A DNA stretch of 63,544 nucleotides, counting the filler, from Reclinomonas americana ATCC 50394 (Eukaryota), in assembly GCA_048213135.1 (NCBI GenBank). It is 11 parts of 11 records of this genome, joined end to end, with 100 filler letters (N's around TTAATTAATTAA, not from the genome) between each part and the next. Parts side by side here need not be neighbours in the genome. Positions count along the whole stretch, not along the records: positions 27,135 to 42,256 come from AFZH01017893.1; 10 more parts are not named here. The stretch is one strand, 5' to 3'. The notes below the pieces were generated by a model, which ran no database searches, was not told the origin of the DNA, and worked only from the letters and a program-made list of their open reading frames with translations. The first letter of the stretch is position 1, and every line of letters begins with the position of its first letter. Below are positions 30,360 through 53,332 of this stretch, piece by piece. The translations under genes were made by a program, and so were the position numbers.

Positions 30360-33300
30360 TCAATCATCCAGCTGCATTTGCCGACTGGCAGCGCTCAACC
30401 GCTGCAGCACATACTCGTGGACGCCCCTCGCTTGGTACACAAGGCAGCGACTGAAACGAGACACGAAAGGACCCAGAAGCCGCTCGACGTACCCCGACGA
30501 CCGATCACCGGCCACAGTCGGCGCGCTGCGACTACCGCGACGGCCCGTGTCATCGGCATCCCCGGCAGCCGCCGTCTCCGCAGCAATAGCGGCGGCCGCA
30601 GAGGCGCGACGGGCACTTACTGGCGCACCACCGCGGTCGCTGTCAGCGTCAACTCGCCACACGCGGACGCAGCTGTCATCGCAACAGCTGACGATCCGCG
30701 TACCTTCCGCACACACGGCCACTCCCGTAACTCGGCCGTCGTGCCCGACGAGCTGACCGCGTGGTACGAGCTCCATCACGCCATCGAAGTGCTGCTCGTC
30801 GGCGTCGATATCCTGCCACATGCGTACTGCACGGTCGTTGCCGCCCGTGACAATGCAGCGTGTGCCGTCGGCCAATGTCGCAAATTCCACGCATCGAATG
30901 GCTTCACGATGCACATGATGCGCCAGCCACCGTCGGCGTATCGTCGCTCCATCTGCGCCAGTCATTGTCCACTCGGACAAGTCGCCATTCGAGTGGCCAC
31001 ACAGCAGACGCTCCTCATCGTCTCGAGAGAGCACCAAACTCAGCACCCGGTCTTCCACTTGCTGCGCCGACACTTGCTCCCTGCGTGCCAACGACCACAC
31101 TCTCAACATCAAGTCGTCGCCGCTGCTGATCGCCGAGTCGCCACGTTGCGACACACACAGTGCGCGCACCGGTGTGTTACACATGCGAGTTGCGCCGCCC
31201 TCCTGGACTTCGATGCAGTGGTCTCCGAGCGCTGCAAGCTCAATAGTACCTGCAGCATCGATGGGGACATCAATATCGACTGCAAGTCGGCCGTCTGGAA
31301 TCTCGCCAACAGATATCGTGCCGTCCAGGCTGCCGCACACCACCAGTCGTCGTCCATCTGCGGCTTGGACGGCATGCGCACAAATGACAGCGTCAGTGGG
31401 ACCGACAAAGCGGCAGCGCTCAGTGCCGTCCTCCACCAGCCACACTCGCACTGTCCGATCACTGCTGCCGGAGACCACGAGTGCACCGTCGAAAGCGAAA
31501 GACAACGAGTTGATTTCGCCCGTGTGACCAGCCAGCTGACGGAGCAGGTCACCGTCATGTAGCGTCCAGATGGCCACTGTATTGCTGTTGACGACACCGG
31601 CCACATGCTGCAACGGTCCTTCGCCAGACATCGTCAGCGCGACGGGTACGGCATTGGTGTCCAGACGACGGCGACGGCGGCGAAGGTGTTCCGCTGTCGA
31701 CCACCGGCGCACGCTGTTATCTGTACTGCCGCCACTCACAATGAACTCGCCATCGTAGGTGGTGGTCAGTGAGGTGACTGGTCCTAGGTGCCCGTCAAGA
31801 GTACACAGCAAATCCCAGTTCTCGGTCCACACGCGAATCTTGTTGTCGACGCAACCGCCACTGAGGAGAAGGCCACCATCTCGAGTATAGGTCAGTGCCC
31901 GCACCGAACCTTGCGCCGCGTCGAACTTGGAAACCACGCCTCTTGCTGCCAGGCTAATGCGCAGTATCTCGCCGTTCTCGAAGCCGACAGCAAACACATC
32001 TGGATCTGGTCCCGGCGACAGGGCGATGCAATGTGCCGAACTCCGACGCTCGACAGGCGGCGGCAAACAGAGCAGTTCCATGGCCATGCCATCGCTGACT
32101 TGCCACACGCGAACATATCCGTTCTCGTAACCCGCGGCAACGTATCGACCCCTCGGCCACATGGCCACACACAGTACACAACCAAAGGAGTGCGGATCCT
32201 GCGATCTACGCATCTCTCTCGATTCGCACGGCAGCTTGTCAAGCGCCCAGATTCGCACAGATCCGTCGTCGCTGCCACTCACGAGAGTTGTGTCGTTCGC
32301 CGATAGCGCGATGCATCGCACTGCGCCTGTATGTCCCCTCAACAAGAACCATTCAGCGTGCGTTCCGGCCGCCGCAGTCACGTCTCTCTGGTCTGCTGTC
32401 GTACAAAAATAGCCACGGATCGTCTTATCGTTACAACCGACAATTACTCGCTGACTGTCGCCAGTGATGGCGATGGCATGAACGGCATTTCCACAGGGAA
32501 TAGCGTCAAGCTCAGCAGCATCCGCGGCCAGCCACAATCGGGCGGTGTGATCAAAGCCACCCGCCGCGACAATCCGACCATCGAAAGACGCGGCAACTGA
32601 TGTCACTCCTCGCTGGTGACCCTCGATTGGCATCGGCTGCAACTGTGCTCTATTGAAGTCACAGTAGTTCAGGTCGCTCTCGTCAATGTACGCATGGCGA
32701 ATGTTGACGCGCGCAAGGTCGCCCCGCTGCAGCCGAGTGCGATGCATGACGACATGACTGAGGTCGGCGCCACGGAGCCGCACTTCCTCCAGATCGCGCG
32801 CGCTGAATGAAATGCCGGCCGCACACAAAACGCCAGCAGCGCTAGCCGCCGCACAGACTATCGGTTCGGCATCACTCGACCTGGAGAGCTCGACAATCCG
32901 CCACACTTTCTCCTGCACGGACACATCGCGACGAATGCGATCGGCGATGAACATAATAATGGAGTCGAGTGACTGTTCAGTGCACATGTGAGCGACCATA
33001 ACATACAACAGGAACAAAAATGCGTGCGCCAAAACGCTGTTCACCTCGTCAGAGCGCGTCAGCAACCTGTCACTGAGGATGCGCTTTGGTTTTTGCAACA
33101 AATGCTGAATTACACAGTCCAGGTCTGTCGACTGGGACATCATGTCGACCACCGCGTCAACCTCCTGGAGCCACATGTCGGCAGCAAAGTACTCCAAAAA
33201 GCTCTTGTGCGTGAACTCGACCACGCACGAATCTAGATTGTACCGAGACACCCACTTCAGGAGCGCCTATTATGTTTGTTCGTCAGCAGGTGCATGAAGA

Positions 33301-35674
33301 CGCATGCTGCAATCGATAAGGTCTCACCGCACGGATGACAACGTCAGTCTTCGGTTCCTTTTGCCCGACCGTGAACCGTTCTCTCCACAGCTGATCCGCG
33401 TACTCATCATTCATCCACTTCACCAACTACACATGCAAGAAAGTAGTCATTAGACAGCGGGCAGTACACCGAAACACTTAAAACTTGACCACACAACATA
33501 AGGGTCCATTGTCGTGACACGGCGACACATGAGTTCACCAGCGAGCGAACGGCAGAATTCTCGAACTTGCAGGTCAAACTCCCCAGCACCACCTTCTACA
33601 AATTGCTGCAAACAAGAGAGATAAGTGCAGAAGAGATGACACAATACGACTATTGCAGGCACTCACCGCTGCAATGTCCGTCTCAAAGTGCTCGACTTCG
33701 TGAATAATACGCCGATCCATGAAGACACGATACAGATCGGCGCGAGTGACTCTTCGCCGCCAGTCCTCACGCGCCAGATCATCGCTGACGCGCACAATCA
33801 TTTGAAGCATGATAGGCTGCGGACCGGCAGTAATCGAGTGATTATGAAGGCAGTAACAGAGCCACCACCAATTAAGGGATTTCCATACCGATTTCGCCAG
33901 ATCAGCCAAGCCGGGAATGCGATTGATCTGCTGCTGACGACGATCGTGCATCAGCCGGTCTTCGTGGTGCTGCTCGCAATACCTGGTCCAATACGACAAC
34001 TATTGGCCACCACTTCCTTTCAACAAGAAGTCGACAGCACAGCAACAACGCAACTCGAGCAGAAACCGTCCAACGTCTGTAAAGGAGAATGGACGAAGAG
34101 CACAAGTGAGAAGAAGTGTCTTGTCTCGGGCCGCGGCGTCAATCTCAGTTGCTGGAGTCAACGCCACATCCAAAGGATCAAACCGGCTTGTCCACTGCCG
34201 ACCAAGACGACTGATGAATTCACGGCGGACAGAGACGATGAGCCGCAAATTTGGGAAGTTCTGGATCGCACGCACAGATGAGTAAGAATCCTGCGCCGGC
34301 AGGTCAGAATGTCGGCGTCGCTCTGAACGCACCTCCAAATTGTGGAAACGATAAAGGTTGTCCGGCACCGGGCACTCGTCGAAGCCGTCCAGAATCAGCA
34401 CAATCCGCTGACACTCGGACAACTACGCTCGGAACCGATTCACAGCTGTTAGAAATATCGATTCTCGCTCACGTGCATTGAGCAGCGCAAGCACGCACAT
34501 CTTCGCACTCGAGCCTCAGTCGCCGATCCACATCGCGAGTCGCACACTCCAGCATATGCGGCACCAAGCGACCTCGTGTGTGAAGCACATCTTGCGGAAG
34601 GACACACAGTCGCTCTCGCAAGACCAACATGTTGGTGTTCTTTTCCGGATCGGTAAAGCGCTTGTACATCTTGCTCAAGAGCGTGGATTTGCCAGCACCC
34701 GACCAGCCCACCACCACAGCCACCTGTGTGTCGAAATGCGCATCATGAGTAACACCACACACAAGAACACATATAAACTTTGCGGAGTACGCACGCGATC
34801 AGTTGGCCTCTGACCACTGTCTTCGACAAATCGCGAAAGGAGCTCATCTGCAAGCGTGTATTCGGCGTCAAGTTTATCAGCCTCGTCAACCGATTCGTTG
34901 GCGAATACGTCGATCTGTGTCACACACGACGACGCAAGCAGCATGGTTCAGCACAAACGCGCAGCATGCCTCCGCGCACACAGCGATACGTGTACACCGA
35001 ACCAGTGTTTCCTGCTCTTGCTGCACGCTGGCCACTTCCTGTTCGGCATTCACGCGAAGGCGGACTTGCACTGCGCGAATGGCAGCAAGCTTCTCTGCCA
35101 AAGATACCACCGAGGCCACGAGCCACACATTGCCGGCAGCCTGCACAGCATGACCACGGCAGGTGAGAAGAAGATGCTTGCCCAACGCTGCAGCACAACG
35201 TGCGTATGTCACGCACCAACAGGTCTTGAATCTCAAACAGCTGGTCCGGCTTCATGTCAGCATCAAAGCCGTCCACGATCAGCACAATGCATCGAGTGAA
35301 GCGCGCATTTCCTCGCACTCCCGCCAAAGTGGGACACAGTTCTTGCTTCAGCAGCTTCTGCCCTCGCGGCAAGAGACTGTTGATGCAGTCTAACACATAC
35401 AAAAGCAGCTGGTGTCGCTCGCCGAGGTTTCTGATGTGCGACAGTCGCTCTCGAAAAACAATTGTGTCGACGCTCTCGAATGGCGGCTTCCTTCCTTGCC
35501 GTCGACGCTCGCGAGAGCTCAGCTGCTGAAACTCAATGCTCTCCGTCACGAGCTTTAAGTACAAATGGTCCAGCAATAGAGATTCACCACCATCGGGCCA
35601 GGGCGGGGACACAATCAGCTGTGGCACGCACAGCCAGGCAATGAAGTGAGCTCGAGATATGCGCACCTCCAGAC

Positions 35675-35719
<45 letters not shown>

Positions 35720-36100
35720 CGCACGCACACACACAAAATCGCTCACTACACTCTGTCACACAAACACACCCTGTCGGCTATCGTTGCGTCAGCAGCAGGG
35801 ACTGTGCTGGCTTGTACCAGGCGAGTGCGAAGTGCATCTACTGCGGCAGCAAGAGGAGTGCCCAGATCCTACACGAGAAAAAAGAAGTGAGTCACAAAAT
35901 GCATGCAATTTCACGAGGCTGGAATGCCAAGACAAAACACGTACCAGGGGTTGTCGCTGCTCTGGCGTCAGGAAAGCGAACTGCCTTTTGCGTACCGTGG
36001 TCAGCTGCCTGGAAAATGACGAGCCACCACCGCAAAGGCGTACGCGTGTTCGAAAATGTGAGCGAGTCGACATGCACATTTTCCCTGTCGGCTGCTGCGC
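30360..36100 (-). CDS. NLR-like STAND module B: pseudo-NACHT + NACHT + pentapeptide repeats + WD40
   Basis: Walker A VVVGWSGAGKST (~34685-34717), Walker B IVLILDGFDE, LIVSVR, P.ML, FTHKSFLEYFAA and pentapeptide DLEEVRLRGADLS. Many GH..V...A.S.DG...SG..D..VR.W repeats lie in a single ~2.9 kb exon ending at 30360. The 5' boundary is uncertain and the module could be fused to module A. Confidence 0.82.
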
Positions 36101-36324: not shown

Positions 36325-39300
36325 TCAGTCCAAAGCAATGTCCCGCGAGTCGGGCGCGGCGACGCCAATCACGCGAAGCAAAGTTCCCGACGCCACACAC
36401 CACACGCGGATCGTCGAGTCGTCACCAGCGGAGACCAGTCGCTGGTGCCCAGCGCTGTCTTCGACAAATGCAAGACCGCAGAGGGTCGCCGCATGACCGC
36501 GGACAGCTGTTGATGCTCCACTCTCCACATCGATGAGGCGGACAACACCAAAGCCGGCGGCAACGGCAATCACCACTCGTCCTTCCGCCGACGAAAAGGC
36601 GGCAGCCAGCGACGTGACCCCGATCCCGGCACACGCGTTCGGATCCACGAGTGGTCCAACTCGTCGACTGAGTGCACCATTCTCACGACTCCAAACACAC
36701 ACCATACCGTCGTTGCCACCGCTAAAGACAAGGGTCGAGTCCGGGGAAAAAGGCCACGGTACTGACTGGTAGTGAGTGACACCTGTGTTCAGCTTCCAGC
36801 GAGACGCTGGTACCAGTTGAGCCATTCGAGAGTAACCACACCATCACACGCCTGTCGGCACCTCCACTGACAACAGAAAAACCATCAACAGATATGGCAA
36901 CGGCTGTCACGGGAAGCATGTGACTACCGAGCAATTGAGACTCGGCGGCACCCGGGGCGACGTTCCACAATCGTACAGTGCAGTCGTCGGAGCCGCTTAC
37001 AAGCCGGCTCCCGTCGGCAGTGAATGCCAACGCACGCACACGGCGGTCGTGACCAACAAGAACACGCTCATAATGACCATCGTCAACTACCGAGTAGACG
37101 TGCAACTCGATCCGAGAATCTCGAACCACAGCAAGAAAAGTGTGGGATGACGTCGACGCGCAGGCAACAGCATGTGGGAAAGGCGAACAACGGTCGATGG
37201 GCAACAAGTACCGTCTAATGCGACCATCCGCCAGCGACCACAAGCACACACCGTTTTGAAAATCGGCGCTGCAGACGAGATCGGCGGCTCCACTGCCGGT
37301 CATCGTCAACATCTTGCCGAGTTTTGGCTGCGATCTGCGCATATCCGACGCCAGCAACAGAGGCCACAACCGTACGCTCGGGTTGCCACCGGTTCCAGTA
37401 GCAAACCAGCGACTGCGGGGTGACACAGCAATGGCGGTGACAGGGCCCTCGTGGCCACTGAATACAGACAACAGGCGACCCGACTGCAAGCACCAGATGC
37501 GCACGACTCCGTCACAGCGCCCGCCGCTAATGACGTGGCGGTCGTCTGGCGTGATGGCAACCGAACATGCGCCTCGGTGGTGGGCTTCAATGACATGTTC
37601 CACGCTCAGTCGGTGCACGCTCCAGATGCGCAGTGCACCGCCGTCATCTGCACTAGCTGCAATGAAATGCGACTGGCACAGCGCCACAGCCGACACAGGA
37701 TATGCGTGGCCTTCCAGCACCGCTGGCTCAGAGAAGCTGTCCATGCGATGCAACCGTACAGCACTGTTGGCGCACCCACTAATGACAAGTGGAAGGCGGT
37801 TGCCACCAAACACAATCGAGACTGCAGTGATCACGGCGGAGTCGTCGCGAAACATCGCCCGTGGCTCATGCCGCGTAGCAGCTGAAACCGTCGACCACAA
37901 CTGCAGCATACCGTCCGTGAAGCCAACTACAACGAAGAAACCGTCGGCCGTTGCACTCACACATGTGATAGATGCGTTGCAATGCTGGTCTGCTGAAAGG
38001 AGTCGGCAAGGCTTCGTGAATTGTGGCAGATCACTATCAGCTGCGTTCGCAGTACAATTCTGAACAGAATACACCGCCACGCGGCAGCTTCTCGTGTCAC
38101 CAGCTAAAGCCGCCAGGCCAGTCACAAGTCTAATGTCCCCGCGATCAACACAAAAGGCAGCGGCAGTCACGAATGGGTCCGCCAACTCGACACGCGCGAT
38201 TTCATCACGTGTGATGACTGACCAGACGCGCATCTCCTTGTCTCGCCGAAAATATAGATCACCCAAATGACCACAACAACTGAGAAGCGTGTTGTCTCCA
38301 AACGCTAGAGCCGTAACTGCTGACACGTGTCCGCGCATCGGCTCGGCCGGCAGGACGCAATCGGTGAGATTGCACCCTGAGAGGTTGGCCTCACGACAGA
38401 ACGCCTGTGACAGATTGACTGCCCGCAGGTCGGCTCGTTGTAACTGCGTCCGATGCAACACTGCGTCCCGCATGTCAGCGCCGCAAATACGGACTCCTCG
38501 AAGGTCGCGACCGGAGAACGCCACTTGCGCCACGCTGAGTATCGTGGCCGCATTGGCAGCCGCAACAACAACACAAGGCTCAGGCTCCACATCTTGGACA
38601 GCTCTCGACAGCAATATCACACGCCAGAGGCGCTCCTGCAGTGCGCTGGATGCGCGCACAGAATCAGCAATGTACGTCACCAGGGATGGGTGTTGTTGAA
38701 TCATGTTGGACTTGGTGAGAACGCTTCGCCGCACACGTTCTACGGTGATATCCTCGGCGTGCTCGAGCTGAAACACATCACAGGCGACGAAATGCTCCAG
38801 GAACGACGCATGGCAGAACTTCCACCAACGCTCGCAGAATTGTAGCAATGGACAGCAGTTGCGAATGGCCAGCTGCTCCCTCGCATCCGAAAAGAACTCG
38901 CGCCTCAGACTCGCCTCGTCAATGTTGTCACTCGAGCAGCGTACTTCAGTCAGGCTCGCTCGAAACATGGCACGTGCAAGGCGGACGAGGAACTCGTGAC
39001 ATTGCTCCACAGATGGCACGTCAGCCGCAGCTGCAGCTACAGCTGTGTACTGGCGACGGGCGTGCGAAATCCACTCTTCCACACAACGGTCGTAGATGTC
39101 GCGCGGCAACAACTGGCATCCACGTTTTGGCAAGTGCGGCAGAATATCGACGGCCATGCCGAAAAGCAATGGAGTCGACGACAACGCATCGATGCGGTCA
39201 CTTTCCTGCAGCGCCTTTCGGTAATTCTCCGTCAGACGCCATGGCGAGCCAGCGGGAAATGAGTCTCGCACCACGTGCACATACTGCTCCAGAAACATGT

Positions 39301-40626
39301 CAATTTGTTGCTTGCCGAGCGGCAGCAGTCGGCACTCGGTCAACTCCCCCTCTTGTAACGCGGCTGTCCTGTCGAGAGGAGCGAAAAATCGAGGGTAGTC
39401 TGTGCCACCGGTTCCCAGCCTGGCTGCATAGTCCGAGCGACAAGTCATAATGACCTTGATATCGGCGAATCGGTGCAGCTGTGCGTGGGGAGGGAAACCA
39501 GGTGAGCGATCTAGAACTACAGTGTTCTCGACTCACAATCGGCGGCTTCTTACTTTGTTGGAAACAAACAGGTTAACCGAGAGACCACGCTCGTCGTATC
39601 CGTCAACAAGGAGGAGAACTGGAATATCGCGCAGTCGGCGGGCAACGGCGTCTGGCTCTGCCGCCTCCCGCGTTGACGGCATCCGCTCAGCCACTGCTTC
39701 CTCCAGAAGCCGTCGCTCCAGCATCTCCGGGCGTATGTGCGTCAATTGTACCAGCAGCGGTAGTCGAGAAGTAGCGTCACCTGTCCATCGCTCACCGACA
39801 CTCTCTGCCACCTGCAATAGCGCAGTTGACTTTCCAGAACCGCTGTCACCGAGGAGGAGCAGCACTTGCTTGTCATCGCAGGCCAGAAAGCGGTCGACTT
39901 CATCGATAAAACGGCAGTGTACTTCCTCTGACGGCACGTCGCACATAAGTGGAACGTGCACCGAGTGCCGGACGTACGCAGCCGTCGGCGACTTGGTATT
40001 CCACGATTCGCGTATGAAGTCAACCTCGCACTCCACCAGCTCATTTAACTGATCGTGCACTGTAAGTGTGCCTGCGGTGAGTAAGTCGTCAACGATACAC
40101 GAGAGCATAAATATCCACGCAACAGAGTGCTTCGCTCTCCAACCTGGCCAAGTACTTGTCAACTGGCATTGAAAGCCGCTGAAGCCACCGACACAACTTC
40201 CCAATTCGGCTCTTGCGTGGATCGCCGCCAATGTATCTTCGCACTTCGAGTGCCGACGCCATGTGAATGCCTTTGTCGGGGTGAGCAAACTTGTTTCGAA
40301 AATCTCGAAGTTTCTTCACCGCCTTGAGCTGCACATCGCAGGGTAAGTGCCGAAAACGTTAACGTAGCGACTGGTATCCACGGCGAATCGCTAACGCACC
40401 TCGAGAGCGTCAGTGAGTAGGAACGCGTCAGTTCCGTCACTTGCTCGCAGTCCTCCATAAAGTAGAATGGAAGACAAGGCAGTCAGGTCAAACCCCGAAC
40501 ACGGCGGTGCACTCGTCCTATCAGCGTTGAACGCTGTGCTCCACTCTATGACGTGCACGTACTGCTTTGCATCCAGCTTCACGACGCCGTCTCGGCCACG
40601 TGGCCTGAATCTGCACATACAAACAT

Positions 40627-40715
<89 letters not shown>

Positions 40716-41292
40716 ATCAACAATTGATCATGACGCAGCGTGTACCAAGTGCATGGGACTGTAACTTTTCTGGAATCTTGCCCTTTGGACGCCACGCTTC
40801 AACGACGTCCATATCAGGGTGTTCCGTGCAGAACTCGGGAAGTCGCTGTTGCAGGCGGCTGGCAAGGGCTTCAGTGGCGATCTCCATGGCCACAAGAAGC
40901 CGCTGATAATGCAGTCGCCTGCGAAACACGACAATCATCAAGCGCAGAAGTGATACACCGGCACATGTGCGCGTACGTACCCTCCTCCATGCAAATCCAA
41001 CAAGTCCACCGTCAACACCAACTCATCCGGGCCCACAGGAACCACCTGCATCTGCTCGAGAGTCTGATCCCTTGCAGTGGCAAACACAAAGGCTTGCTTC
41101 TCGCTTTGCACTCGCATCCGGTCAGGAGCAATAGGCAACAACAGCTCAGCCTCGAGCAAGTGCGCTGCCTTCTCCAGCAACTCGCCGACCAACATTTCTC
41201 GCGTGGCATTCTCCACTGTCACGCTGACACCCTCGTCAGAGTCCTCCAGTTCGAACCGAATAGGGAACTGGCGCGAGAAGTGAGAAACACGT

Positions 41293-41325
<33 letters not shown>

Positions 41326-41350
41326 GGCGGACACCACACGCACGCACCAT
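36325..41350 (-). CDS. NLR-like STAND module A: N-terminal domain + HEPN + NACHT + pentapeptide repeats + WD40, with one frameshift near the 3' end
   Basis: An ATG micro-exon at 41348-41350 splices to FPIRFE. HEPN-like YQRLL..A..AL / FDLTALSSILL / LRDFRNKFAH (RNKFAH at 40281-40298). Walker A LLLLGDSGSGKST (~39827-39850), Walker B LLLVDGYDE, KVIMTCRSDY, TPLLF, FCHASFLEHF, pentapeptide DLRGVRICGADMR, then WD40 repeats. A +1 frameshift lies at 36747-36751. Confidence 0.85.
40618..40713. repeat. (CATA)n/(CA)n microsatellite in an intron of the HEPN region
   Basis: Perfect CA dinucleotide run preceded by CATA units. Confidence 0.95.
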
Positions 41351-42252: not shown

Positions 42253-42356
42253 CTCTNNNNNNNNNNNNNNNNNNNNNNNNNNNNNNNNNNNNNNNNNNNN
42301 TTAATTAATTAANNNNNNNNNNNNNNNNNNNNNNNNNNNNNNNNNNNNNNNNNNNN

Positions 42357-45983: not shown

Positions 45984-46789
45984 GTGAGTCTCTTGTATGT
46001 GTGCATTTGATGCATGATTTCTCCTCTCTGCTCTCTCTCTTTCTCTCTCCCTGTGTGCTTTCGTGCTTCTCAGCGTGTCTGCTTCTCCGCGCCTCTTTCA
46101 GGCTCATGGAGGCGTCTCTCCTTCTCCTCTCTGCTCTCCCTTTCTCTCTCTCTCTCTCTCTCTGCGTCTTGGTCTCTCTCAGTGCCTGTCTGCCTCGCCC
46201 CGTGCCTCACTCAGACTCATGGAGGCATCTCTCCTTCTCTTCTCCTCCTCTTCTCTCTCTCTCTCTCTGTCTCTGTCTCTGCATGGGTGTCTCTGTGCTT
46301 GTTTGTATATCTGCCTCGCTCAACACTTCTCTCTCTTCCCTCCCCCCTTTTCTCTCTCTCTCTCGCAANNNNNNNNNNNNNNNNNNNNNNNNNNNNNNNN
46401 NNNNNNNNNNNNTTAATTAATTAANNNNNNNNNNNNNNNNNNNNNNNNNNNNNNNNNNNNNNNNNNNNGAAGGGGGAAGAGAAGGGGGAAGAGAAGGGGG
46501 AAGAGAGAGACAAAAAGGGAGGTAGAGGGGAAAAGAGGGAAGAGCAAGGGGGAAGAAAAGGGATAAGAGAAGGGATAAGAGAAGGGGGAAGAGAAAGGGG
46601 GAAGAGAAAGGGAGAAGAGAAGGAGGAAGAGCAAGGGGGAAGAGAGAGACAAAAGCGAGGCAGAGGGGAGAGGGGAGAGAGAGTGGGAGAGAAGGAATGG
46701 AGGGAGAGGCAGAGAGACAGAAAGAGAGAAAGGAGAGAGAAAATGAGAGAAATTGGAGAAAGAGTCCAACAGAGAAGGGGACGAAAGTG

Positions 46790-49700
46790 AAGAGAGAGAA
46801 AAACGAAACTTGAAGCGCGGAGACGGAGTGGCGATCACGCTGCCGCTGCAAGACGTGTCGACAATGACAAAAGGCGCGACGAAGGAATTGCCGAGATTTG
46901 ACAACTCGGTGCCTGTCAATTTCAGAATCTCTATCGTGCGACCCGATACGAGCTCCGCGCTGACAGTCGTAAAATCGCCTGCAAACACGCAACGAATAAG
47001 CGAAATAGGACACTTAGAATATCTCGCGCACGTGCGTGGAGCTTACCAGCCGATAATACTCCCGCCAGCATGTAGAACAGCGAGTCGGTTGTGTACCGCG
47101 CACACAGATAGAATCTGTGTGTCATCTTCCATGAGCAACACACAACGACAAAAACCATAAGAGTGAGGCGCAACTTTCCGGCAGACGGCGACCCGCTCAG
47201 AGTGAGTACATGAGTCGCCCCGGGGGCCGTCGACACTGGCGTCAGGGTGGGATTCGCAAGGAATGTTCCCGACTCGCATGTGGTGGAGGAGGCGATGGCG
47301 TATCGCGCTCCGTTGGTGGTGTCGCTCATGTCGGGCATCGAGCAGCCGTTGATGTTGAGAGTGATGGTGCCGACTTGCGAGGCGCGGAAGGTGTTTGGCG
47401 AAATGTACATGACGGCGGGGCCCACCTGCGGAAAAGGGGGAAGGGGAGATGAGGGAAGGGACGGGAAAGGGGAAGATGAGGGAAAGGGGAAAGGGGATAT
47501 GAGGGAATGGCAAAAGGGGGAGATAAGGGGAAGGGGGAGATGAGGGAAAGGGGGAGATGAGGAAAAGGGGGAGAAAGGGGGAAGGGGGGATATAGGACAC
47601 AAGGGAAAGGGGGGCAGGGAAAGGAGGAGATGGGGGAAAGGCGAAAAGGGGAGATAAGGGAAAGGGTTAGAGGGAAAGGGGTAGAAAACGGAAAGGGGGC
47701 AGGGGGCAGGGGAGAGATGAGGGAAGGGGGAGATGAGGGAAGGGGGAGATAAGGGAAAGGGGGAAGAAGAAGGAGGATGTGGAAAAGTGGGAGATGAGAG
47801 AAGGGAGGAGATGAGGAAAGGTAGAAAGGGGAAGAGGAAGAGGGAAAGGGGGTGATGAGGGAAAAGGAAAGAAGGAGATACGGGAAAGGGAAAGGAGGAG
47901 ATGAGAGAAAGGAGGAGATGAGGGAAAGGGGACGAGGGAAGGGGGACATATGGGAGAGGGAGAAAAGGAAAGGGAGAAAAAGGAAAGGGGACAGAGAAGA
48001 GAACGAGAAGTAAGAGGAGTAAACAGCATGGGGAGAGAAGAGAAGAGGAGAAGGACGAAAATAAGGAGAGGGAGGGAAGTAAGAGGGATGACAACAACGG
48101 CGTGGAGTGGGGCTAGGGGAGCTTGAGCAGGAGAGGAAAGAAGCAAAACAAAAGAGAAGGAACAGTGAACCGTTCTCTGTGTGTGACGTACCGAGACGAA
48201 TCGCACACCGAATTGAGTTGAGTCGTACATCAGCAGCGCTCCCGTGGCATTGTGTCGTGAAATGGACTGCATTAAGGGTCAGACGTGCACTACATACGCG
48301 TGGATGCTCGGAGACACACACACCGAAATGGACTGGAAGCGCGCAACCGAGTACGCTCCATCGGTGTATGCGCTGTTGCCGAACGAGCCAATGTACGACA
48401 TGTAACCCGAATGATCGGTGGAGATTACTTGGGCAAATGAGTTTGTCTGTGCAACGAGTCGTTGAGCGTAAGGACAATGTAGTGGAGTGCAAATGGGAGT
48501 GCGCACCTCATCGCCAATCACCAAGTCACCGGTGGTCATCAATGCAAGACCTCGACCTGCATGCAGTGAGGTGAAAAGAGGAAGGAGCATGTACATCACT
48601 GGATCTTTCACGAAACTCGCAGTGAACAGATCGAGACCCAAATCGCAGGTAGTGGGCGGGACACACGGGTTGAATGTGCTCGGGGTGCTCGATTGACCGG
48701 CGAGCACCGTCCAGGCGTTGGAGATGTATTTGAGTAATCTCCCGGTGGCTGAGGTGGGAGACAAGGGACAAGGGTGGGAAAGGAGAAGGAGGTGGAAACA
48801 GGGAGTGAAAAATGAGGCAATGAGTGAACGGCGAGAAAAGCGGAGGGAGATAGAAAGTGGACAGTTGCAGCAGAAGAGCGATGCCAGGAGATTGACAGGG
48901 CGAAGGAGAGAAAAGAGAGGGAAAAGAGAAGTTACATGAAGAGACGAGGATGGGGAAGTGTTAGAGAAAGAGAAGTGAGAACTGAGACGGAGAGGAAGAG
49001 AACCAGACGGATAAGTGAAGAAAGAGGAAGAGAAGGGAGAAGAGGGAAGGGGAGAAGGAGAAAGACGAGGGAGGGTCAAGAAGGGAGAGAGAGAAGGAGA
49101 GTAAGAAGAAGAATGGTAGTTGAGGACTGAGACTGCCGGAAAGAGAAGAAGACGGGAAGTGAGAGAGCGAGCGGCAACAGAGAAGGAGTTGAGGACTGAA
49201 ACTGAATGGAGCACAGGAATACTGAAAGAGAGAAAAAGTAAGAAGAAGAGAGTGAGGGCCCAACAAGAAGTGAGAAAGATACGAAGAAACGCTGGAGAGA
49301 AATGGTGAACACACAGAGAGAAGGAGAAGCACAATTAAGTGAAAGTAGAGAAGGACAGGTACAGCCACAGTACAAACAGGAAGTCCCAGCACACTCACAT
49401 AGGTCGACCGTGTACAGCGCGTATCCGGCAGACACCTTGCGAACCACCAATTCTGTGTCACGAGTGTGAGAGACGCACACGCAAGGCAGAATCACGAATT
49501 TGAACGTACGCAACGAGAGAACTCGGGTGTCGCTGCACCAGGCGGCGTCGGCAGCGTTTCCACCTGGCCGTCGGTGTTGGACCAGTCGGCGAAGCGAATC
49601 ACCGACGTTGAGCCTTGCCTGTCGTGAATGTAGAGCGTACTCGAGGCCTCGTTGACGGCAATTTGCCTAATGTCCGTAAACGAGGATTGGGTGAGTCGAC

Positions 49701-51560
49701 CGTCTGCGGTGCCCGAAATGCCGGTGCCAAGCAATGTGCTCGTGAATCCCGTTGTCAGATCCACGGCACGTACACGGAAGTTGTTCTGCGAGAGGGGGGG
49801 TGAGAGGGAGACAGAGCGTGAGTAACTTCGGCAGTGTGATCAGCAGGGCAAGATACGTACCGCATCGGCAATGAGCAGCACTTGTCGCACGTTGCTGATG
49901 GCCATGCCGCGGATGGTGTTGAAGCGGGCGTCCTGCGTGGGAGGGAGGGGTGATGGTGAGGCACAACAAGGAGAGGGAGAAAGGGAGAGGCAAGAAGGAG
50001 AGGGAGGAAAGGAGAGGGAAAAAGGGAGAGGGAGGGGTGAGAGACAAGGAAAGGGAGAAAAGGAATGGGAGAAAAGGAAAGGGAGAAAAAGAAAGGGAGA
50101 AAAGGAAAGGGAGAAAAAGGAAAGGGAGAAAAGGAAAGGGGAGGGGCGAGAGAGAGAGAGAGAGAGAAAATGGAGGAGGAGACAAGGAGAGTCTAGTGTG
50201 TGGACGCGAGACGGCAGCCTGAGAGAGCGAAACGGAAGAAAGAACAGATAAAGACAACGACGGAAAGACAAGATGATGAAGGAAGCATCAAGAGACAACT
50301 GTATGACTGAGAGAACGCGAATGAGGAGGGGCAACAATGCAACGAGCACAACACGAGATGAGAAACGGGAGACGGAGAGAGAAGGGGGGAGAAAGAGAAT
50401 GAGAGGGAAGAGAGTTGACAAAACACTATTCAGGAAGCACGATGGACCAACAAGCCTGCTGCAGCAACAAGATGCCAAGGGCGACAGCGGGACAGGGAGA
50501 AAATGAGAGAGGGGGGAGTGGAACAAAGAAGGGACAGAACAGACAGGCCCAACAATCTTGTTGCGGCAGCATGCGCCAAATAAGGGAGACAGATAGAGAC
50601 GAAAGATACAAGGACTGGCAGCACACAATTCAAGAAACGGAGAAACCAACAATTCGGCTGCAACGCAGGAGACGACAAATGGGAGACAAGAGAGAGAGAG
50701 AGAGAATGACCCAACAATCGTTGCGGCGAAGAGAGAAGGAGAAAAAGATTGACTAAACGGATAGCCTCAACAATCTTGTTGCGGAAGCACGCACCAAACG
50801 GAACCGCATGTCAGCGACACCAGAGGAAGTGGAGCCCGCATACCGCGAGATGCGTGCATCTTGCGTGATGGTAGCCACGGCATTGCCGAGTGGCAAAAAG
50901 AGCTCTCCAGTGCGATTGGTCATGACGGTGGCGCTCATGGGGTCCATGGACGCCAGCGATGCCGTCAGCGGGTCGCCGTCCAGCTGTGGTACGGTACCTG
51001 ATGGCCCGCCGGCCAGCGTGCATACTTGCGGTTCATCTAGTCGAAAAGAAGGGTGTCAAAACCAAGAAAACAAGTGGCGGCGAGGATGGGTGGCGCACCA
51101 ATGAGGAATTTTCCAGAGCCGGCACTCATCACACGCTGCACTCCGCTACCCCAGTCGACGCACAGGTGGTAGAGCGAGCCCATATTAGGGGTGATGCCCA
51201 CGGCGTCGGCTTGGAAGAGGAAAACCATGGAGATGAAGTCGACATCTGGAAAAGGGGGAGGGGGAGGAGAAGTGGGGAATGAGAAGGGAGAAGGGGAAGG
51301 GAGAAGGGGAAGGGGAGGGAAGGGAAAGGGAGGAGGAGAGGGAAAGGGAGGAGGGAAGGGAAGGGGAAAAAGAAGGGAATAGGGAGGGGGAAGGGAGGGA
51401 GAAAGGGAGGGAGAGGGAGAAAGGGTGGTAAGAGGAAGACGGAGAGCAATGAGCGAGGGGTGAAGCATGTCATGCTTGCTTAATCGGCTCAATAGCGGCG
51501 GCAGCACCATGACAACGACCGGAAGAAGTGCGCTTCCTGTTCGATTCTAACGACTTCCAT
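46790..51560 (-). CDS. NHL-repeat / Ig-like extracellular protein; both ends uncertain
   Basis: Exons include ARFNTIRGMAIS..LLIADA-QNNFRVRAVDLTTGFTSTLLGTGISGTADG, GLALMTTGDLVIGD, YTDG..SVARF and a later beta-sandwich-like P.VMYISPNTF..GTITLNINGC. They are separated by long pyrimidine-rich (sense) introns. Confidence 0.7.
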
Positions 51561-51842
51561 GATGCGATTGGAAGAAGTGACGAATATGTGCAGAGGGTGG
51601 CGCGTGGCTGAGATTTCATAGCTACACACAAGAAGGGAAGAGGAAGAGCGGCATACAACGGATTTCGGGTGCACTGGCGGAAGAAAGGAAGACGGAGAGC
51701 GGGCGACAAGGATGTGAGAGACGAGAGAAAACATAAAGGTTCTTTCTTTTTCTGCTTGGCTACAGCGGAACAAACTAGAAGGCGACAGAAGAAGGGCGGA
51801 CGAAGGCAGAAGGCTTCTCCGCCTGGCTCTTTCTCTCTCTGA

Positions 51843-51900
<58 letters not shown>

Positions 51901-52104
51901 NNNNNNNNNNNNNNNNNNNNNNNNNNNNNNNNNNNNNNNNNNNNTTAATTAATTAANNNNNNNNNNNNNNNNNNNNNNNNNNNNNNNNNNNNNNNNNNNN
52001 GCCAGTGCGAGGTTGGAAGGGGGAGGAGAGGGCGACGGGGGCCTGGATGGAGGGGAAAGGGGAGAGAGGAGAAGGGTGGTTGGAAGGGAGACGAGAGGGA
52101 AGGA

Positions 52105-52870
52105 GAGAGAGAGAGAGAGTGAGAGTGAGAGAGTGAGGAAGGGAGGGACTGAGTGAGTGAGAGAGAGAGAGAGTGAGAGGGAGAGAGTGCAAGTGAGTGA
52201 GTGAGTGAGTGAGGGAGGGAGGGAGGGAGTGAGTGAGTGAGTGAGTGAGTGAGTGAGTGAGAGAGTTAGTGAGTGAGAGGGCGAGAGAGAGGGAGTGTGT
52301 GCAGTGAGTGAGTGAGTGAGTGAGTGAGTGAGTGTGTGAGTGAGTGAAAGGGAGAGAGAGAGAGTGAGTGAGTGAGGGAGTGAGTGAGTGAGTGAGTGAG
52401 TGAGAGAGTGAGTGAGTGAGGAAGGGAGGGACTGAGTGAGTGAGTGAGTGAGAGTGAGTGAGTGAGTGAATATAGGAAGAGGGAGGGAGCGGGTGAGTGA
52501 GAGAGAGAGTGAGTGAGTGAGTGAGAGAGTGAGTGAGTGAGTGAGTGAGAGAGAGAGAGTGAGTGAGTGAGTGAGGGAGAGAGAGAGAGTGAGCGACTGT
52601 GAGAGAGAGAGAGAAAGAGTGAGAGAAAGTGAGAGAGTGAGTGAGTGAGAGAGTGAGTGAGTGTGAGAGAGAGAGAGTGAGTGAGTGAGTGAGTGAGTGA
52701 GAGAGAGAGGAGTGAGTGAGTGAGTGAGAGACACAGAGAGAGACAGAGTGAGTGTGTGTGTCTGACAGAGAAAGAAGAGTGTAAGAGAGTGAGTGAGAGA
52801 GAGAGATTGAGAGTGAGTGAGTGAGCGAGAGAGCGAGAGTGAGAGTGAGTGAGTGTTCGAGAGAGAAGAG
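52105..52870. repeat. (GAGT)n/(GA)n low-complexity microsatellite tract
   Basis: Roughly 750 bp of interleaved GAGT and GA units. Confidence 0.95.
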
Positions 52871-52899
52871 TGTGACTTTTCTTCGCGTTCGTTCACTCA

Positions 52900-52935
<36 letters not shown>

Positions 52936-53332
52936 CTCTCTCTCACTCACACACACTCTCTCTCCACTCTCCCTTCTCATGTGATATCCCCCCCGCGCTC
53001 ATGACACCCTCATTTCATGCCACTTTCCTCCCTCTTTCATGCCACTCACCATCGACACCATCAGCGTCATTAATATCACCAACACTGCGCATAGCCACAC
53101 ACACTGTTCCCTTGTTTTCATAGTTATTTAAAAAAGAAAGACAGAGAGACTTTGTTTGTGTCGTGACTCTGTCTGTTAATCAATCACAGCTGCAAACAAG
53201 AGAGACTGTTATGTGTGTGTTTGTCACTCTGTTACTCTTTTTGTGTGAGTGCCTTTGCGCGTTGACAACGTGTGTGTTTTTGATGATTATGTCACTGCGT
53301 GTCCGGTTTGGAAGTGGGACCGCTTTTTTTTG

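Follow-up and report, generated by a model that had tools for sequence, protein, structure and literature searches.

The stretch of DNA analysed here, referred to as the window, comprises 63,544 nucleotides joined from 11 records of the Reclinomonas americana ATCC 50394 genome (assembly GCA_048213135.1). The locus under study lies on its minus strand, within the part taken from AFZH01017893.1, where a gene resembling those for NOD-like receptors (NLRs) is predicted to run from position 41350 down to 36325. Judged from its sequence, this gene is real and NLR-like. Pfam NACHT (PF05729) matched the exon here called e6 (E 5.2e-7, 30.1 bits versus a cut-off of 26.7), and the 936-aa open reading frame (ORF) at 36722-39532 matched both Pfam Pentapeptide (PF00805; E 1.3e-9, 37.9 bits versus a cut-off of 20.2) and Pfam WD40 (PF00400; E 1.2e-39, 133.5 bits versus a cut-off of 27). 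Together with the above-threshold NACHT match, a Walker A motif of the form GxxxxGK[ST] (GDSGSGKST, 39824-39850) and a Walker B motif of the form hhhhDGxDE (LLLVDGYDE, 39590-39616), both in e6, identify the module as a NACHT-type STAND NTPase. The WD40 arm was 24-42% identical to bacterial WD40 proteins, mostly cyanobacterial. An earlier reading of the DNA, made without database searches (the sequence-only reading), had described an NLR-like STAND protein in which a NACHT module leads to pentapeptide repeats and then WD40 repeats, and the Pfam results bear this out, with about 350 residues lying ahead of Walker A. The same reading had proposed that those residues include a HEPN ribonuclease head, and the present study is mainly concerned with that proposal.

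The predicted product, of about 1,500 codons, begins with a 95-residue alpha/beta domain and a helical region some 170 residues long, after which come a linker, the NACHT module, the pentapeptide repeats and the WD40 region. All of the peptide strings quoted for the minus strand of 39820-41350 were located, in the order claimed: FPIRFELED..VGELLEKAA in exon e2, YQRLL..ATEAL in e3, FDLTALSSILL in e4, LRDFRNKFAH in e5 and GDSGSGKST in e6. A candidate start ATG would form a mini first exon (41348..41350), with a GTGCGT donor directly after it. Intron 1 (41268..41347, 80 nt, GTGCGT...CCAG) contains a (CA)15 microsatellite at 41294-41323 and is followed by e2 (40981..41267), which encodes the 95-residue domain. 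Intron 2 (40919..40980, 62 nt, GTACGT...CGCAG, phase 2) joins the frames of e2 and e3 cleanly. The region of e3 from 40918 carries ..YQRLLVAMEIATEAL.. on the minus strand; in its short form the exon (40796..40918, beginning RLHYQRLLVAMEIATEAL) ends at the donor GC/GTGGCG, the slash marking the splice point, and in its long form it extends to 40746. With the short form, intron 3 (40611..40795) is 185 nt long and includes a (CA/GT)n array at 40614-40714; its donor is uncertain. Exon e4 (40400..40610) reads FRPRGRDG...FDLTALSSILL...TDALE and is separated from e5 by intron 4 (40329..40399, 71 nt, GTGCGT...GTGCAG, phase 0), where reading through e4 meets an in-frame stop directly. Exon e5 (40124..40328, beginning LKAVKKLRDFRNKFAH) is predicted to be helical, has an uncertain 3' end (40124, 40119 or 40144) and contains RNKFAH (40281..40298), the candidate HEPN Rx4H catalytic motif. 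In one in-frame model, intron 5 occupies 40072..40123 (52 nt, T/GTTGCG...CCGCAG); an alternative occupies 40049-40118 (70 nt, phase 0). Exon e6 (39554..40071) encodes the linker and the N-terminal half of the NACHT module, and after intron 6 (39479..39553, 75 nt, GTAAGA...CACAG, phase 0), e7 (36722..39478) encodes the remainder of that module, the pentapeptide repeats (about 38357-38446) and the WD40 propeller or propellers. At 36741-36755 within e7, a T5 run (36747..36751) inside CCTTTTTCCCC breaks the frame within one WD40 repeat (..PVSTVAF / SPDSTLVFSGGNDGMVCVW), and the final ~140 codons of the WD40 region lie in the shifted frame (36325..36746), with a TGA stop at 36325-36327.

Reading frames were assessed by a codon-usage log-odds score trained on two long WD40 ORFs. 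For each of e2, e3, e4, e5 and e6, the proposed frame ranked first of the six, and e2 gave the highest signal among the N-terminal exons (+0.395/codon). Three of the five N-terminal junctions were clean (introns 1, 2 and 4, all GT[GA]CGT...AG and 62-80 nt long), as was intron 6, and the microsatellites sit within introns 1 and 3. At the other two junctions, the obvious donors were out of phase. The obvious donor of e3 (G/GTACAC) is phase 1, whereas the e4 acceptor requires phase 2; the obvious donor of e5 (AG/GTTGGA) is phase 2, whereas the e6 acceptor requires phase 1. In-frame GT-AG options exist at both places, namely an e3 donor at 40795 (GC/GTGGCG) and e5 donors at 40123 or 40118 with acceptors at 40072 or 40049, all relying on non-consensus donors. 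Use of the 40795 donor drops a 17-codon tail of e3 that is not coding-like (40747-40797, -0.078/codon). When donor hexamers near ORF ends were counted across the window, only GTGCGT and GTGAGT were enriched; the disputed e3 and e5 donors resemble neither, and the counts were too noisy for ranking them. A model joined by script gave 449 stop-free codons, of which 350 lie ahead of Walker A. An in-frame join from RNKFAH to the NACHT module is possible. The spliced N-terminus that had been proposed is less tidy than the earlier reading had it: the obvious splice sites fail at e3-e4 and e5-e6.

These junctions bear on whether the NACHT-WD40 part and the exons ahead of it form one working protein at all. 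They might instead belong to two adjacent genes, or to a decaying pseudogene. In the two-gene version, e1-e5 would stop at 40089-40091, where reading through e5 does meet a stop codon, and the NACHT ORF would begin either near 40105, at an ATG, or at the Met before Walker A. The out-of-phase donors at e3-e4 and e5-e6 are in keeping with such a split, as is an in-frame intron 5 of just 52 nt, compared with 62-80 nt for the clear introns. So is the frame break in the WD40 arm, where one repeat is split across two frames by a single base at the T5 run with no space for an intron; the gene may therefore be broken, or else the assembly carries indels, and together with the phase problems this weighs against an intact gene. 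On the other side, two ORFs on the same strand that overlap or abut within ~20 nt would be unusual in a eukaryote, several canonical GT-AG pairs hold e5 in frame with e6, and the frame of e6 is coding-like overall. Beyond the WD40 break, the new frame is open for ~140 codons (codon usage +0.18/codon; WD40 E 8.3e-10, matching profile positions 19-39 only). This open, coding-like frame speaks less for old decay than for a break that either is a single-base indel of the assembly or arose very recently as a frameshift. Single-base indels in the assembly could also account for the two splice-phase problems. On balance, we regard two genes or a pseudogene as improbable. That a single multi-exon eukaryotic gene with the predicted joins occupies the locus, and also encodes a HEPN head, is a combined proposition to which we give an even chance.

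For the first domain, the sequence-only reading had ventured a ubiquitin-like header, which found no support. The AlphaFold2 model of e2 had a predicted local distance difference test score (pLDDT) of 52 and the order strand-strand-helix-strand...strand-strand, which is compatible with a beta-grasp but is not evidence for one. When this model was compared by VIA, the best match reached Z 3.9 and was to designed proteins, and ubiquitin-fold entries reached just Z 2.6-2.8.

The helical region was next considered as a HEPN domain. According to section 6 of PMC3710099, members of the HEPN superfamily carry Rx4-6H in which the Arg is immediately followed by a polar residue (N, D or H), and both that survey and PMC9646362, where they describe the motif, call Asn typical at this position. 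RNKFAH conforms to this pattern. The six-frame translation of the window contained 1581 occurrences of Rx4-6H, and RxxxxH alone is therefore uninformative. The narrower RNxxxH appeared 10 times in the 127,084 codons of the same translation; when the 350-residue N-terminal model was shuffled 20,000 times, it arose in 1.2% of the shuffled versions. As a fold, HEPN is an up-down bundle in which two alpha-hairpins supply four helices. When the e5 peptide alone (68 residues) was modelled with AlphaFold2, pLDDT was 77 and helices were formed by residues 2-14, 26-33, 41-51 and 56-67, with R11 and N12 in the last turn of helix 2-14, which ends at RNKF, and A15-H16 at the start of the loop that follows. 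Section 7 of PMC3710099 places the HEPN catalytic motif where helix-3 ends and within its loop; the position of RNKFAH in the model agrees with this, the model being that of a fragment smaller than the whole domain.

Even if the head were derived from HEPN, it might serve as an RNA-binding or oligomerisation module rather than a nuclease. Inactive, nucleic-acid-binding HEPN versions are described in section 6 of PMC3710099, and the 122 residues separating e2 from RNKFAH contain no Ex3[KR]. The absence of this upstream acidic motif also tells to some degree against a HEPN assignment as such; the survey, where it deals with the motif, describes it as frequent in HEPN families and not obligatory (PMC3710099). 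However, the Arg, the polar Asn and the His are all present at the commonest spacing, and the same survey, in its treatment of activity, takes a kept motif as the mark of an active ribonuclease (PMC3710099). We consider a non-nuclease HEPN head very improbable indeed.

Further evidence on the head was sought with HEPN profile hidden Markov models (HMMs) built from cyanobacterial members of the DUF4145 (n=30), ApeA (n=13), Swt1-type (n=24) and PF05168 (n=30) families. Three of the four peaked on one and the same segment, KAVKKLRDFRNKFAHPDK, and aligned it to their own RN..H or GN..H motif. The scores were 7.8 bits for DUF4145, 6.6 for Swt1-type and 4.2 for ApeA; among 5000 shuffles, these were equalled by 1, 1 and 0, respectively, and among 867 natural ORFs by 0, 0 and 2. 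The natural set totalled 209,324 residues and took in every window ORF of at least 80 aa lying outside the region. The two natural ORFs that reached the ApeA score are instances of a cyanobacterial HEPN-like ORF, and thereby constitute an unplanned positive control. With hhalign, the real sequence scored above 80 of 80 shuffles for all three families, with a P of 8.9e-4 for Swt1-type. In the ESM Atlas, the few neighbours of e5 that bear a name include Csm6-HEPN (0.82), Cas02710 (0.82) and DUF4145 (0.80), which we treat as leads only.

The cyanobacterial ORF just mentioned is an observation in its own right. It occurs at two loci (L088 and L089, in cyanobacterial genomes G180 and G348), is 253 or 348 residues long, carries ..FDLRNSAAH.. 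and scored 15-16 bits on PF18738, below that family's cut-off. In the natural null it ranked top for the DUF4145 and ApeA profiles and within the top six for Swt1, and from its sequence it is probably an unassigned bacterial HEPN-like protein.

A number of results weigh against a HEPN head. The fourth profile, of PF05168 type, gave no match (-4.6 bits), and the matches of the other three spanned only 16-27 residues. The hhalign probabilities for those three families were 23%, 6% and 4%. In global hhalign alignments, nothing upstream of the motif was similar, and of 60 trials with that upstream part shuffled, 28, 22 and 3 equalled the real global score. Likeness to the HEPN families thus ends at the motif helix. 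When e2, e3, e4 and e5 were scanned singly, no Pfam, PADLOC or NCBIfam match was obtained even at E <= 10, in scans that took a head split across three exons exon by exon and with HMMER filters that conceal scores under roughly 11 bits. On PF18738, the cyanobacterial HEPN-like ORF reached 15.3 bits, in contrast to e2-e5, for which no score was reportable. Searches with the e5 fragment model by Foldseek and VIA returned only generic small helical bundles (Z <= 5.6), and e4 was unrecognised in a language-model search (recognition 1548). The recurrence of RNxxxH noted above counts on this side too, and since the motif was picked by a scan of the whole window, its statistical weight is lowered.

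Homologue searches point the same way. No homologue of e2, e5 or e6 was found among longer proteins, no real homologue of e5 or e6 among metagenome contigs or of e5 among genome contigs, and no true relative of e4 among 1.84 billion representative proteins. What two metagenome matches (L003 and L004) have in common is YIGGDPRK, read antisense to a bacterial hydrolase-like gene, and both were set aside as spurious; the sole e4 match, P0001, is an 837-residue tandem-repeat protein and was rejected as a repeat artefact. A search of 401 cyanobacterial genomes with the e5 peptide yielded noise only, RN..H being kept under the motif in 0 of 10 re-aligned loci. Within the window, no paralogue of the N-terminal exons was found, and no further HEPN match occurred among its 93 coding-like ORFs.

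Such results would be expected if the locus encoded an NLR-like NACHT-pentapeptide-WD40 protein whose 350 N-terminal residues are lineage-specific and not HEPN (an adaptor or another effector), with RNKFAH having arisen by chance on an amphipathic helix. At present, the locus chiefly illustrates how little one RxxxxH motif proves, in an architecture that is commonplace among conflict systems. The silence of all family libraries on e2-e5, the lack of homologues, the restriction of the likeness to the motif helix, the ten RNxxxH and the generic fold matches of the e5 model all favour this explanation. It accounts less well for a motif segment whose score none of the 867 natural ORFs equals in two HEPN profiles, and only two HEPN-like ones equal in the third, for a motif at a helix end with its His in a loop, and for its location where NLRs bear effectors and where HEPN heads are documented. 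We judge a non-HEPN head unlikely, though less so than a split locus. As to the HEPN-type head originally claimed, the Asn after the Arg, the helix-end position and the match of the motif to three profiles speak for it, and the matches of just 16-27 residues with hhalign probabilities of 4-23% speak against it. From the sequence and the fragment model, we would say that the chances are evenly divided that the helical region is a very divergent HEPN-type ribonuclease head with RNKFAH as its catalytic Rx4H.

Assignment of the head to the DZIP3 family in particular, which was also part of the sequence-only reading, gained no support, and we place membership of that family lower than the HEPN fold itself. 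PF18738 (cut-off 27 bits) gave no match to e3, e4 or e5 singly at E <= 10, and its cut-off was not reached in 401 cyanobacterial genomes, in E. coli K-12 or in 3 other genomes. Upstream of RN...H, DZIP3-type domains typically have a TEAL-like helix 1 and FD.T.L..LL, which ATEAL and FDLTALSSILL in the present sequence may resemble.

The proposed architecture has several known counterparts, HEPN-NACHT receptors being documented in invertebrate animals and in bacteria. Table 1 of PMC3710099 lists an N-terminal DZIP3-type HEPN on NACHT proteins in animals and records lineage-specific expansions for Nematostella, for oysters and for Capsaspora, a unicellular holozoan. PMC9646362, in its account of the pearl oyster, reports more than 50 NACHT proteins with a DZIP3-type HEPN head, and notes that NACHT proteins of this animal may also have LRR, TPR or WD40 tails. 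With these DZIP3/hRUL138-like HEPN-NACHT proteins (PF18738), the present one would share an N-terminal helical head with Rx4H (RN...H), a NACHT module and a C-terminal repeat arm. However, PF18738 is silent here on single exons, no sequence relative was found, and the Reclinomonas protein has an extra 95-residue front domain as well as pentapeptide repeats between NACHT and WD40.

Section 16 of PMC3710099 describes N-terminal HEPN domains on bacterial STAND NTPases. Antiphage proteins of this kind (bNACHT, Avs-like) follow the same logic of a HEPN head, a STAND NTPase and a repeat sensor, and the motif helix of the present protein aligns best with the cyanobacterial Swt1-type profile, some of whose source ORFs are ~1,100 residues long. 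In contrast to the bacterial systems, the gene studied here is intron-bearing and eukaryotic, the likeness covers ~22 residues only, and searches among bacteria turned up no homologue of the head. Its neighbours in the window are ordinary eukaryotic genes (SRAP, FA_hydroxylase, CPR-like reductase, GIY-YIG, DHHC and TLDc).

NWD or HET-E type proteins of fungi and animals, and cyanobacterial NACHT-WD40 proteins, likewise have a NACHT module followed by WD40 propellers. The NWD/HET-E families bear HET, PNP_UDP or other heads, and the head here is a different, unassigned one. RNase L and the KEN domain of Ire1, as treated in sections 6-7 of PMC3710099, offer a model for sensor-driven assembly that activates a HEPN site; their KEN domains are circularly permuted and driven by a kinase-like module, not by NACHT, and the comparison implies no kinship in sequence or fold with the head discussed here.

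That the head has a HEPN fold is inferred, as are the joins between exons, the activity and all of the signalling logic, and the following mechanism is drawn by analogy with STAND/NLR proteins and HEPN ribonucleases. The WD40/pentapeptide arm would sense a ligand, and ligand binding would free the NACHT module for nucleotide exchange and oligomerisation. NACHT oligomerisation could then pair the HEPN heads, since ribonucleases of this type require dimers, and the active HEPN sites would cut RNA, leading to growth arrest or cell death.

A second, divergent NLR-like gene, a NACHT-like/pentapeptide-like/WD40 paralogue, lies directly downstream on the minus strand (30360-35300). It has a Walker A exon with ..GWSGAGKST.. 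(34472-34798), an exon with a NACHT-like Walker B (34003-34422; NACHT E 0.0067) and a 968-aa ORF matching WD40 at E 2.6e-66, with pentapeptide-like text before the WD40 repeats; its N-terminus is unlike e2-e5. Upstream of it, also on the minus strand, the ORF at 34923-35777 carries a Walker-B-like ..CIVLIVDGFDAD.. together with RNLGERH (Rx5H). No Pfam family matched this ORF, which may be what is left of a third NACHT module or may belong to the second gene as its head. Elsewhere in the window, long stretches of 46000-53000 show strong skew (GC skew up to +0.42) and are dominated by CT/GA-type, microsatellite-like low complexity, in which extended but spurious ORFs with much S, L and P appear. 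Paired runs of 44 N with 12 bases between them were found at ten sites (20 places; for example, 42257-42300 and 42313-42356) and resemble masked sequence more than normal assembly gaps. An Rfam scan of the window detected no RNA family.

A full-text literature search found no publication on a HEPN-NACHT-WD40 protein in protists, which is a weak negative. Tentatively, and with the balance somewhat against it, we suggest that the head may represent an unrecognised, highly divergent HEPN lineage, placed behind a new small alpha/beta domain in the NACHT-pentapeptide-WD40 receptor of a eukaryote that has been poorly sampled. If true, the head would widen the sequence range of HEPN domains, and the protein would be a divergent addition to the known HEPN-NACHT architecture in another eukaryote rather than a new type of system. 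HEPN-armed NLRs would then extend beyond animals and bacteria, either through inheritance that predates animals or through independent assembly. A working HEPN-NACHT protein elsewhere in eukaryotes would thus provide a data point on whether nuclease-headed NLR immunity is ancient or has been repeatedly reinvented.

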